This document shows positions 25,947 to 28,306 of a DNA stretch of 64,000 bases, one piece after another. Made by a program: the position numbers and the translations under genes. Every line of letters starts with the position of its first letter. Positions within the stretch are counted from its first letter, which is position 1. Under the pieces are notes generated by a model. That model was given only the letters and a program-made list of their open reading frames with translations, was not told the origin of the DNA and ran no database searches. The DNA lies in NCBI RefSeq assembly GCF_050920415.1, contig NZ_CP169309.1. One strand, 5' to 3'. Source of the DNA: Escherichia coli (GTDB taxonomy: Bacteria; Pseudomonadota; Gammaproteobacteria; Enterobacterales; Enterobacteriaceae).

Positions 25947-26972
25947 TTAATTTCCTTCTTTTTGAGGAAGACTACTGTGAAAAGGAATATCCGTTTTAAA
26001 TTTATCTTTGACTATTTTTGCATCACCAAACCACAAGGAAATAGATGACATTCCCTCTGGGCAAGCTATGTTTTCAATTAATTTATATTCTTCGTTTATA
26101 CCTTGACCAATAACAAGTCCTATAACGCCCATTTCACCATTAGGTTTATTTTGATCTCGAAGTGCTTTTAGCAATTTTTTTACATTTCTTCGTTTTTCAT
26201 CATCCATCACATAACCACCTGGATTTTCTTTATTCATTTTTAACGCATTTTCAATTCTCTCTATAGCATAGTCAATGGCTCCCTCCTGTTTCTCTGATAA
26301 AATACCTTCATACTGCGTAAAATCACCTGCATCGTCACCATGACATGCCTTTGTTTTTACTTCACAGATCAGCCAAAAATCATCCGGCGGCGGTGAAGGG
26401 TTTTTTACTTTAGCAACAAGATCAAGGCCGTTTTTGGTTTTGACGTGCTGAACCGACATCACCGAACCTTCTACTACGCTGAAGTTAACGGTAGCCGTTG
26501 CCTGTTTAGCCTCCTTATTATAGATATGAAATTGTGCATTTCCCTGTTTCATCTTCCTGGCGAGAAGCACCTCGCCAACATCACCAGTAAACTGATTGAT
26601 TTTCAAAGAAAATAAGCTATCAAAAATCTTATTTTTAATCAAAAAATTAGCAACCTCAGTTGCGCTCATGCCAATTTCTGTATCGCCATTAACCTTTACG
26701 CGAAATGTTGCGTGTGTTGTACTGCCAGGCTCAAGCTCTGACTCAATACGTACAATTGCTTCCGTTGCATCTTTATTACCGGAACCTGACGCATGTGTTA
26801 TCCCTACAGTAATCCTGGTCGGGCCGGCTTGTTCTTCAAAAGTGGCAAAGGCCGTATTGGCTCTGAGGACTTCAGCCTCGGCTTCTTTTACTCTTTTCGC
26901 ATCATTAATCGCACGCCGGTTTACCTGCGTAACATTTACTGCATCTTCGATAGCCCCTGTACCTTTTCCCAT
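25947..26972 (-). CDS. hypothetical cytoplasmic protein, 341 aa (immunity candidate or effector module)
   Basis: ATG overlaps the upstream gene stop (TAATG); soluble, no TM segment. Confidence 0.55.
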   Translation of the reverse strand: MGKGTGAIEDAVNVTQVNRRAINDAKRVKEAEAEVLRANTAFATFEEQAGPTRITVGITHASGSGNKDATEAIVRIESELEPGSTTHATFRVKVNGDTEIGMSATEVANFLIKNKIFDSLFSLKINQFTGDVGEVLLARKMKQGNAQFHIYNKEAKQATATVNFSVVEGSVMSVQHVKTKNGLDLVAKVKNPSPPPDDFWLICEVKTKACHGDDAGDFTQYEGILSEKQEGAIDYAIERIENALKMNKENPGGYVMDDEKRRNVKKLLKALRDQNKPNGEMGVIGLVIGQGINEEYKLIENIACPEGMSSISLWFGDAKIVKDKFKTDIPFHSSLPQKEGN

Positions 26973-28306
26973 TATTTTTCCACTCCCTGGTCTTCATTCT
27001 CAATCTTCATTGAGGAAACCTCTACTTCATTTACCAGTGCAACCTTACTGCCAAGGTAAGCGCCGCCACCACTGGTAACTAATGCTGAAGCAAATTTATA
27101 TTGTGGTTTTTTACCAAATACCATCAGGGTATTTATTGCATGAAAGGCCACTTCAATATTATGTCCCCCACCTGATTTTTTATCCAGATAGCGGGAAAAC
27201 TCAAGCAGTGGATTATATCCATCGGCTTTTGAACCAAGCCACCGATTACGCAGTTTATCCGCTACCTCAATACCATGATTGACATCCACAACAAGCATAG
27301 CAATACGAAGAACCTTCATTGAACCTTTTAAAAAAATAGTCCCGGAAACAATAGCAGCAATCGTCAGAAGTGCATCAGCGACCTCTAAAATAACATCCCT
27401 TACAACATCAAGAGACCGGTTCTCATCAGCCTGATTAAGAACGGCACGGATAAATTCTTCCGCCAGATCAGAGGGGGATTTATGTAATGGGCCGGCCAGT
27501 CTTTCAGGACGACTTCCTGCACTATTTGTCGCCAGCTCACCATATATCAGCGATACATCAAGTGTTTCATATGGACGGTATTTCAGTTGCTCATCGGTTA
27601 ACACATCCCGGTATTCAGCAGGAAGACCTATCGGAACTTCTGCATCTCTGTAGATATAAATATCCGGCGCAACCTCAACAACAAAATCATCTCCCCAGAA
27701 TGTACTGCCATGAGTTCTGGCATGTTCCACTTTATAATTATTACTGTAATAAGGGATAATATTTGCACCAACCTCATGGTATCTTAATTTAAATTTAGCA
27801 TCTTCCAGTTGAACGGTTTCTCCTTTATATTTAACAGCAAACCCGTTGCCGTCTGGGCTTTCCCTGGCCTGTTCGTCAAAAAGCAGTGCAAAATTGAGAA
27901 ATGCTTCATCCCCAAGTTGTTTTCTGACGGCATCAAAAAACGCATCCATTGCCACAATTTCTTTTGCTGTTTCAATAGCATTTCTTTCCGCATCCGTTAA
28001 ATCTGGCGAGTCCTGTATTGTTGCATAACGGGTGATTTCATTATTCAGACTACGGAGTGGAATACCTCGCTGTAAATGTACCTGTGAGGTCTTCTTATCC
28101 ACTGGCTCAAAGAAAGATCCCATGAAACTGGCTGTATTCTTATAAAAGTCTTCTATCGCCTGCTGTCCCTCAGCCGTTGAGCTGTCAAACTCCACAAAAG
28201 CGCCAAATGGTTTCAGCGGGCATGTTGCTGTTGCGCTTTTTGCATCACACGGTATTGCGTCAGAAGGAATGCTTCCCGTTGCCGCTCCGTCAGTATCATC
28301 CATCAC
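26972..28306 (-). CDS. candidate T6SS cargo effector, 444 aa, toxin class not recognised
   Basis: Directly downstream of the DUF4123 adaptor gene with AAGGAG RBS; GTG at 28306 or ATG at 28303; C-terminal third has hydrophobic Gly-rich segments; no GxSxG, HNH or other catalytic motif seen. Confidence 0.5.
   Translation of the reverse strand: MMDDTDGAATGSIPSDAIPCDAKSATATCPLKPFGAFVEFDSSTAEGQQAIEDFYKNTASFMGSFFEPVDKKTSQVHLQRGIPLRSLNNEITRYATIQDSPDLTDAERNAIETAKEIVAMDAFFDAVRKQLGDEAFLNFALLFDEQARESPDGNGFAVKYKGETVQLEDAKFKLRYHEVGANIIPYYSNNYKVEHARTHGSTFWGDDFVVEVAPDIYIYRDAEVPIGLPAEYRDVLTDEQLKYRPYETLDVSLIYGELATNSAGSRPERLAGPLHKSPSDLAEEFIRAVLNQADENRSLDVVRDVILEVADALLTIAAIVSGTIFLKGSMKVLRIAMLVVDVNHGIEVADKLRNRWLGSKADGYNPLLEFSRYLDKKSGGGHNIEVAFHAINTLMVFGKKPQYKFASALVTSGGGAYLGSKVALVNEVEVSSMKIENEDQGVEK

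Follow-up and report, generated by a model that had tools for sequence, protein, structure and literature searches.

A Tap-associated protein with a conserved hydrophobic core in a rare Escherichia coli type VI secretion cassette: a possible carrier for a putative nuclease

Introduction

In type VI secretion system (T6SS) loci the standard rule is that the gene following a DUF4123 adaptor encodes an effector and the next gene its immunity protein, and a question arises how such a locus should be read when the supposed effector carries no recognisable toxin motif and all of its supposed immunity proteins look cytoplasmic. This is the case for a protein of 443 amino acids (aa; WP_000342837.1, 'hypothetical protein' in RefSeq) encoded on the chromosome of Escherichia coli MFDS1022581, of which we analysed a stretch of 64,000 nucleotides (nt), below called the window. 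Among 5426 complete E. coli genomes, the 7.1-kb cassette to which the gene belongs is present in one. An earlier reading, made from the sequence alone, predicted the protein to be a VgrG-loaded effector with hydrophobic glycine-rich stretches in its C-terminal third and regarded the downstream genes as candidates for its immunity.

According to our analysis another division of roles deserves preference. We tentatively favour, while stopping somewhat short of calling it probable, that the 443-aa protein is non-enzymatic, is loaded by Tap, inserts into the membrane and serves as carrier or translocator of a toxin acting in the cytoplasm. With the same reserve we regard it as part of a T6SS cargo effector made of two proteins, of which it would be the first subunit and the product of the next gene, a protein of 341 aa, the toxin partner.

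Results

The genes of the cassette and the signals in front of the 443-aa gene are located as follows.

28895..30967, minus strand: 690-aa VgrG spike protein, whose gene opens the operon (TIGR03361, E=3.9e-180; annotated as Vgr family)
28323..28898, minus strand: short DUF4123 (Tap/Tec) adaptor, 191 aa (PF13503 on orthologues)
28312..28317, minus strand: AAGGAG ribosome-binding site of the 443-aa gene, read from the sequence
28306, minus strand: alternative GTG start of the 443-aa gene, yielding 444 aa
26972..28303, minus strand: gene of the 443-aa protein, ATG start
25947..26972, minus strand: gene of the 341-aa protein, its start overlapping the stop of the 443-aa gene by 1 nt (TAATG)
25015..25944, minus strand: gene of a 309-aa protein, the probable sole immunity protein
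24224..24937, minus strand: gene of a 237-aa protein, a putative Tap/PAAR co-adaptor
23928..24227, minus strand: PAAR tip protein, 99 aa (NF033420; PF05488 on orthologues; RefSeq annotation)

The 443-aa gene begins 19 nt past the stop codon of the DUF4123 gene, and the start of the PAAR gene overlaps the 237-aa gene by 4 nt. Since AAGGAG stands 8 nt from the ATG (28303) and 5 nt from the GTG (28306), the ATG is the better-spaced start. The position behind a DUF4123 adaptor with an AAGGAG site, to which the sequence-only reading had attached its prediction, is confirmed by the PF13503 matches of the orthologues and by the site itself; the 444-aa open reading frame (ORF) it had drawn at 26972-28306 is also real, but it lies on the minus strand and its RefSeq start gives 443 aa. 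A promoter scan produced promoter-like sites in numbers like those in shuffled controls, and terminator-like sites (18, against 8.0 +/- 3.6 in shuffles) did not occur at any gene boundary where they would split the operon.

At least 12 loci contain a homologue of the 443-aa protein, at 19-86% identity, among the same kinds of neighbouring genes, and because of this we consider the ORF not to be a chance one; a profile search of genome contigs with an alignment of its close relatives gave 2 loci. The order VgrG-Tap-[~430]-[~300-380]-[~310]-[~240]-PAAR recurs in L002 (Pectobacterium parmentieri), L004 (Klebsiella spallanzanii), L006 (an E. coli-like contig), L007, L011 (a metagenome-assembled genome of Enterobacteriaceae), L012 (Serratia silvae), L013-15 (an E. 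coli allele different from that of the window, in the same place on the chromosome), L016, L018 and L019, and the 443-like gene is directly 3' of DUF4123 in about 9 of the 12 loci read. Three loci are rearranged. In L008 the 237-like gene directly follows Tap, L017 (GCA_000476315.1) has the order VgrG-Tap-237like-PAAR-443like-341like-309like, and in L020 the sets VgrG-Tap-237like-PAAR and 443like-341like-309like form two convergent operons, so that in the latter two the 237-like gene stands between Tap and PAAR. The order 443>341>309 is fixed in every locus read, usually with overlaps of 1-4 nt. From the rearranged loci it follows that the 237-aa protein groups with the delivery parts and that 443, 341 and 309 make an inseparable triad: the cassette is composed of two units, a delivery set (VgrG, Tap, 237, PAAR) and a cargo triad (443, 341, 309). 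As a separate observation, in L016 a Sel1-repeat gene (4028-4696) is inserted between the 309-like and 237-like genes.

Comparison of the window with L006 demonstrates how the cargo is exchanged. As far as the vgrG stop codon the DNA of this gene is 89-100% identical, that of the neighbouring tssG/tssF 90-99%, and the VgrG and PAAR proteins are 97-98% identical (98% for VgrG, although the cargo behind it differs). Between these near-identical frames protein identity is as low as 44% for tap, 34% for 443, 25% for 341 and 37% for 309, which identifies the four genes as a swapped cargo module; an identity of 95% resumes at 24634, inside the 237-aa gene, and continues through PAAR. The cargo block has a guanine plus cytosine content of 37-43%, against 53-57% for vgrG and tssFG. 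Synteny across taxa and exchange between conserved VgrG/PAAR frames are the operational gene-context features of the class of DUF4123-dependent T6SS cargo effectors, and the 443-aa protein displays both. Judging from the sequences, we take it to be a real, rare T6SS cargo protein of an uncharacterised family. The earlier view of a VgrG-loaded effector is upheld as regards the DUF4123/vgrG/PAAR context and the swapped cargo block; a toxin acting on its own, followed by its immunity genes, is probably not what the protein is.

The two E. coli alleles are mosaics of conserved and variable segments. Tap and codons 1-120 of the 443-aa gene share 99-100% of their DNA, the middle of this gene is polymorphic, its hydrophobic C-terminus plus 90 codons at the start of 341 show an identity of 94-99%, the remainder of 341 together with the first ~120 codons of 309 one of only 49-82%, and identity returns to 97% through the 309 C-terminus, the 237-aa gene and PAAR. 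The strongest polymorphism therefore affects 341 in its C-terminal and 309 in its N-terminal part, as is classical for a toxin domain paired with its cognate immunity protein. Between Pectobacterium and Serratia the picture is alike, in that identity is 80% for 443, 67% for 341 and 62% for 309.

A further division of roles can be read from decayed copies of the triad. In P. parmentieri (L002) three intact tandem paralogues of 309 are found beside decayed 443-like and 341-like remnants; the displaced units make a tandem array (13274-16182) which comes after the primary triad. In unit 2 the core of the 341-like gene is deleted, codons 2-129 being joined to codons 289-329, and an intact 309-like gene follows; unit 3 retains a 28-codon C-terminal remnant of the 443-like gene and a 45-codon C-terminal remnant of the 341-like gene, and here too the 309-like gene behind them is intact. 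Over their last ~70 aa the three paralogues are 97-100% identical, over their N-termini 20-40%. The 309 family as a whole has a hypervariable N-terminal part of ~120-150 aa and a very conserved C-terminus. In displaced toxin/immunity modules of polymorphic toxin loci the immunity gene is retained while the toxin side decays. Since the displaced units of P. parmentieri keep only the 309-like gene intact, the 309 family would be the immunity and 443 and 341 the toxin side, and most likely, as far as these sequences tell, a single protein of the cassette (309) confers immunity, the toxin side comprising two (443 and 341).

The 309-aa protein itself matched no family in profile or PDB searches. 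Its C-terminal half is unusually conserved and enzyme-like, with CDNHLKW and LWPFEYQAVKNFR..HGL.TPEI.HPL invariant across genera, and the family could have a function beyond simple toxin binding. The cytoplasmic look of the downstream proteins, noted by the sequence-only reading, was found again: none of the four has a segment of transmembrane (TM) grade or a signal-like N-terminus, and no member of the 341, 309 and 237 families has a TM-grade segment. After PAAR the window contains no hidden membrane immunity gene. Lipoprotein-like genes with the lipoboxes LNGC, LTGC and LSGC do follow PAAR in L004 (8621-9001 and 9803-10165) and L011 (5598-6347); these genes lack conservation from locus to locus, and the window has none of them. 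The earlier suggestion that the downstream genes are all candidate immunity genes for 443 is not supported for two of them, because 341 is enzyme-like and decays together with 443, and 237 travels with Tap and PAAR.

The enzyme-like character of the 341-aa protein is seen in an alignment of 20 sequences reaching down to about 24% identity, in which E99, K124, G130, E134, G182, D184, K206, Q229, G285 and N301 are invariant and position 204 is always E or D. The motifs succeed each other as GxxxE, apparently in a helix, then G-h-D-h-h and, after 14-20 residues with a PPPP loop among them, h-h-(E/D)-x-K-(T/A), and lastly S-x-x-Q.

26286..26603, minus strand: aa 124-229 of the 341-aa protein, its putative catalytic core, with a GxxxE helix, a GxD strand, a (D/E)xK strand and a Q helix

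This arrangement corresponds to what we take to be the pattern of PD-(D/E)xK nucleases such as Hjc and YraN, with E134, G182-x-D184, (E/D)204-x-K206 and Q229 at the places of the motif, and GxD...DxK is kept in the later-found members from L019 and L020. We consider it rather likely, from the residues and their spacing, that 341 is a nuclease of the PD-(D/E)xK type. A tblastn search of plasmids with the 341-aa protein gave no match. Two peculiarities of its relatives may be recorded. In L017 (9660-9730) the 341-like gene is split into ORFs of 140 and 160 aa at an A7 homopolymer, either by real inactivation or by a sequencing error, and this gene was left out of the evidence; the 341-like protein of L019 (3622-4755) has a highly charged coiled-coil tail of ~90 aa.

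As for the 237-aa protein, nothing significant was found for it in Pfam, NCBIfam, PADLOC or PHROGs. The breakpoint of recombination between the window and L006, at 24634, is near its codon 101: the N-terminal ~100 aa vary with the cargo and the C-terminal ~135 aa stay with PAAR, which suggests a two-domain adaptor bridging cargo and PAAR. The conserved VgrG-binding N-lobe of DUF4123 proteins comprises about 177 residues, and in TecT/co-TecT a protein of its own forms the cargo-binding lobe (Colautti et al., PMC11582642). The 191-aa Tap of the window, with a weak Tla1 match over profile positions 19-129 of 245, is long enough only for this N-lobe. Because Tap is of N-lobe size and 237 moves with Tap and PAAR, 237 appears to be the best candidate for a co-adaptor.

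With respect to the 443-aa protein itself, a word-indexed search of 5.8 billion proteins returned 7 clusters and a full hidden Markov model search of 1.84 billion representatives returned 14; the family amounts to about 18 clusters in billions of proteins. Its members have 395-550 aa, are all 'hypothetical' and all belong to Enterobacterales (E. coli, K. spallanzanii, P. parmentieri, Serratia and, from AFDB matches, Salmonella, Frischella, Budvicia and Providencia); some of them (P0004/P0009/P0014) carry a low-complexity N-terminal extension of ~100 aa. Pfam, NCBIfam, PADLOC and PHROGs contain nothing significant for the protein or for distant family members, there is no Pfam match at E<0.1, none of 17 family members matches any Pfam family, and searches of the PDB by sequence and profile with the 443, 341, 309 and 237 families gave noise only. 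No GxSxG, HxKxxxxD or HExxH occurs in it, so the absence of a recognisable toxin motif, stated earlier from the sequence, holds. The remote homology search and fold prediction proposed at that time have now been run and matched no known family, toxin or non-toxin. A literature search by accession revealed, among the papers it covered, no mention of any of six cassette protein accessions.

A first AlphaFold2 (AF2) model, built on a 7-sequence alignment, was useless with a predicted local distance difference test (pLDDT) score of 45; a second, on 17 sequences, reached 62 overall and is usable for the N-terminal domain alone. A fold search with the model retrieved members of the 443 family only. 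The regions recognised in the protein are these.

28220..28222, minus strand: codon of Cys28, the sole invariant residue in the disordered N-terminal 35 aa (17 sequences)
27479..28186, minus strand: N-terminal alpha/beta domain (aa 40-275), the part modelled confidently by AF2
27314..27946, minus strand: polymorphic middle (codons ~120-330), 60-93% DNA identity between the E. coli alleles, against 98-100% in its flanks
27284..27388, minus strand: family-wide hydrophobic core (aa 306-340), of helical-hairpin length
26975..27283, minus strand: C-terminal helical region (aa 341-443), helical in AF2 at low confidence

Residues 1-35 have a pLDDT below 50 and make a disordered N-terminus. In the block 40-275 mean values per block are about 52-91, mostly 70-90, with helices at 83-142 and strands at 156-220 and 267-274, and this domain is a candidate for the body that binds Tap and cargo. 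The core at 306-340 reaches a Kyte-Doolittle value of 1.6-2.3 over 19 residues in every member examined, the usual TM threshold being 1.6 over 19 residues; its family-mean hydrophobicity is 1-2, with at most 19% charged residues per 11-residue window. Both glycine-rich stretches quoted in the sequence-only reading were found again. In 444-aa numbering LLTIAAIVSGTIFL occupies aa 313-326, with a Kyte-Doolittle value of 1.86 over 19 residues, and FASALVTSGGGAYLGSKVALV occupies aa 405-425, and the hydrophobic C-terminal module supposed there has proved to be conserved. Further towards the C-terminus, the region 341-443 has the conserved motifs GYNPLL and FHAxNxxMxFG and two uncharged stretches at 385-397 and 404-419.

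Twelve columns are invariant in the 17 sequences, namely C28, S59, G80, G131, F142, V211, A281, G321, G357, Y363, N391 and G397. Only C28, S59, Y363 and N391 are polar, and this near absence of invariant polar residues disfavours catalysis by 443. Several candidate features were considered and rejected. LEDAKFK and THGS, as possible active sites, are kept in the close subfamily only and lost in distant members; a MIX motif is not present, as QRGIP does not fit hRxGhhYhh and VasX_N does not match; and a glycine zipper does not define the protein, with 0-3 GxxxG per C-terminal domain at positions that are not conserved.

The surroundings of the cassette have features of an island. An orphan tssF-tssG pair (window 31406-34281, plus strand) diverges from vgrG, has no further T6SS core gene in its vicinity and travels with the island in L006 and L013-15. 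A second tssFG locus, of about 66% identity, exists elsewhere in the strain, and because of it a complete T6SS able to fire this spike is plausible. Further on, isrK and C4 antisense RNA (34376-34565, plus strand; Rfam matches at gathering score) are directly upstream of a 153-aa ORF and a helix-turn-helix gene (34617-35329), beyond which there are two integrase-domain genes and a tRNA-Lys/Val cluster; this region looks like a remnant of a P4-like or satellite prophage bounding the island. At the other edge an RtT RNA element (23593-23718, minus strand) is immediately downstream of PAAR. In the L013-15 allele xapABR is absent and the cassette abuts yfeR. At a distance of a few kb from the island, an IS2 copy (about 16911-18139, ORF 17130-18128) is inserted between yfeH and yfeR.

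Discussion

We favour a carrier role for the 443-aa protein because it is on the toxin side, comes first after the adaptor, is coupled to 341, has almost no invariant residues of catalytic type and contains the sole membrane-grade module of a cassette whose immunity is cytoplasmic. Every T6SS toxin described as pore-forming is paired with a membrane immunity protein (tabulated in PMC13133200). The lack of such a protein in the cassette fits a killing activity in the cytoplasm, and the puzzle of cytoplasmic immunity would be resolved if 341 kills in the cytoplasm and 443 is its membrane-active delivery partner.

We propose that the short DUF4123 adaptor would bind the N-terminal part of 443, probably helped by 237, and load it onto the VgrG/PAAR spike, and that 443 would carry with it the translationally coupled 341, a nuclease presumably of the PD-(D/E)xK type acting in the target cytoplasm. 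In the target periplasm the core (aa 306-340) and the flanking uncharged helices may insert into the inner membrane and help the 341 toxin subunit to cross it, a role that 443 would perform in trans, as a separate polypeptide. The cytoplasmic 309 would be the sole immunity and could neutralise 341 through its hypervariable N-terminal domain. What the sequences show is the conserved gene order, where the modules end, the hydrophobic core, the invariant residues, how displaced copies decay and that no known family matches; physical interactions, secretion, membrane insertion, nuclease activity and translocation are what we infer. A more specific version, possible though rather doubtful in our estimate, makes 443 a soluble inner-membrane translocator which hides a hydrophobic helical hairpin and carries a non-covalently bound PD-(D/E)xK-like nuclease. 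The T domains of diphtheria toxin and the pore domains of colicins are examples of soluble proteins with such a hidden hairpin. If this version is true, the cassette represents a T6SS effector of the binary (A-B) type which has just one immunity protein.

A number of points weigh against the carrier role. The few and unconserved GxxxG of 443 do not reproduce a glycine zipper of the Tde1 type, and its hydrophobic C-terminal domain, modelled at low confidence, could be simply a buried core. The middle of 443 is polymorphic between the E. coli alleles, as expected of toxin-like diversification. The 341 family is unmatched in Pfam, NCBIfam, PADLOC, PHROG and PDB-profile searches; hhalign comparisons with approximate sequences of Hjc (E=0.26) and YraN (E=0.56) are non-significant, although the expected motifs do align. 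The 443-341 interaction, the secretion and the nuclease activity of 341 are reached by inference and not directly. Finally, no fused 443-341 protein occurs among the homologues found, and we found no precedent for a trans-acting T6SS translocator.

An alternative sees 443 as a self-sufficient membrane-disrupting (pore-forming or depolarising) effector, delivered by VgrG/Tap beside 341 as an independent nuclease effector, so that the cassette would carry two toxins. Its place directly after DUF4123, the conserved hydrophobic core with the uncharged helices, the polymorphic middle region and the succession of an alpha/beta N-domain and a helical hydrophobic domain, like a miniature Tap-dependent toxin of the VasX/Tke5 type, would all agree with it. 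We nevertheless consider two toxins improbable: known T6SS pore-formers all have a membrane or periplasmic immunity gene and none is conserved in the about 12 loci, the lipoprotein genes after PAAR being peculiar to two of them and not conserved. Moreover, the hydrophobic C-terminal domain is the part which is identical between the E. coli alleles and not the diversifying one, and neither the window protein nor the 17 family members match NF041559 of the BTH_I2691/VasX-type class or VasX_N (MIX), nor has 443 a sequence or fold match to a colicin-type pore-forming domain.

The protein may also be thought to stay in the attacker, as a non-secreted co-chaperone or co-adaptor similar to co-TecT that stabilises 341 and hands it to Tap. 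A Tap of N-lobe size lets one expect a separate cargo-binding partner, the 443-aa gene is placed between Tap and the putative toxin gene, and invariant polar residues are few in 443. Yet 237, moving with Tap and PAAR, is a better candidate for a co-adaptor, while 443 moves with 341 and 309, and it is not obvious why a cytosolic chaperone should need a TM-grade hydrophobic core that is kept even among members of about 20% identity. The decay of 443 with the toxin in displaced units is compatible with either role. We consider this reading quite unlikely. Least of all do we believe in 443 as a complete toxin of a new fold, enzymatic or other, with the downstream genes, 341 in the first place, as its cytoplasmic immunity. 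This would follow the rule for genes behind DUF4123, and the coupling and similar divergence of 443 and 341 (for each of them the identity between the window and L007 is about 25%) could be taken in its favour. It is hard to reconcile with the displaced units, where 341-like genes are degraded and 309-like genes kept, with the active-site-like invariant E/D/K/Q residues of 341, which would be unusual for an immunity protein, and with the lack of invariant catalytic-type residues in 443, and it is very unlikely in our opinion. The carrier role thus keeps our preference.

Should the carrier role be correct, the interest of the cassette is in its division of labour. The known answers to the problem of crossing the inner membrane, the transmembrane domains (TMDs) of prePAAR effectors and the glycine zipper of Tde1, are cis-acting, and separate genes for the membrane part and the putative catalytic part would let loading, insertion, translocation and killing be mutated independently. 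The example also indicates that the rule 'gene after DUF4123 = toxin, next = immunity' can mis-assign roles. Four families without a Pfam or NCBIfam model (443, 341, 309 and 237) are added to the T6SS repertoire of Enterobacterales, among them a probable new co-adaptor and an immunity family whose N-terminal domain varies while the C-terminal one is nearly invariant.

Among known systems, Tde1 of Agrobacterium tumefaciens is a Tap1-dependent DNase whose N-terminal membrane-permeabilising region serves delivery, and Tde1/Tap1/Tdi1 has in common with the cassette a DUF4123-dependent, VgrG-loaded (here putative) nuclease, a cytoplasmic immunity protein and a hydrophobic region for inner-membrane crossing, in our case a proposed one (PMC10240207). 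The differences are considerable: Tde1 unites N-terminal GxxxG repeats and an Ntox15 DNase in one small polypeptide, while here the hydrophobic module is at the C-terminus of a separate protein, GxxxG is unconserved and the putative nuclease is PD-(D/E)xK-like. We found no sequence similarity between Tde1 and the cassette.

The TseT system of Pseudomonas aeruginosa, which reportedly goes back to Burkinshaw in 2018, is another case for comparison. TseT is described as a DNase effector (PMC11582642), and TseT/TecT/co-TecT/PAAR4 resembles our reading of the cassette in the short DUF4123 lobe, the separate co-adaptor, the DNase effector, the cytoplasmic immunity and the PAAR protein, which are encoded together in a small island (PMC11582642, PMC6684961). 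Compared by description, that system has no 443-like hydrophobic protein, and the corresponding adaptor pair of the cassette would be Tap and 237.

The pore-forming toxins VasX, Tke5 and Ptx2 are likewise Tap-loaded and VgrG-dependent and have an N-terminal alpha/beta domain, adaptor-binding in their case, followed by a helical hydrophobic region; unlike 443, they have ~1000 aa, MIX/VasX_N and colicin-like regions, and inner-membrane immunity proteins (PMC13133200). In prePAAR/TMD effectors (Tse6, Rhs) TM helices are thought to aid passage of the toxin across the inner membrane (PMC11582642), as we suggest for 443. Those TMDs are N-terminal, are fused to PAAR and toxin and need DUF1795 (Eag) chaperones, whereas the cassette has a separate PAAR, a DUF4123 adaptor and a hydrophobic module on a protein of its own. 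Placed among these systems, it is a Tap-dependent T6SS module of four unannotated protein families, in which the effector is apparently split, the adaptor probably so too, and immunity would rest on one protein.

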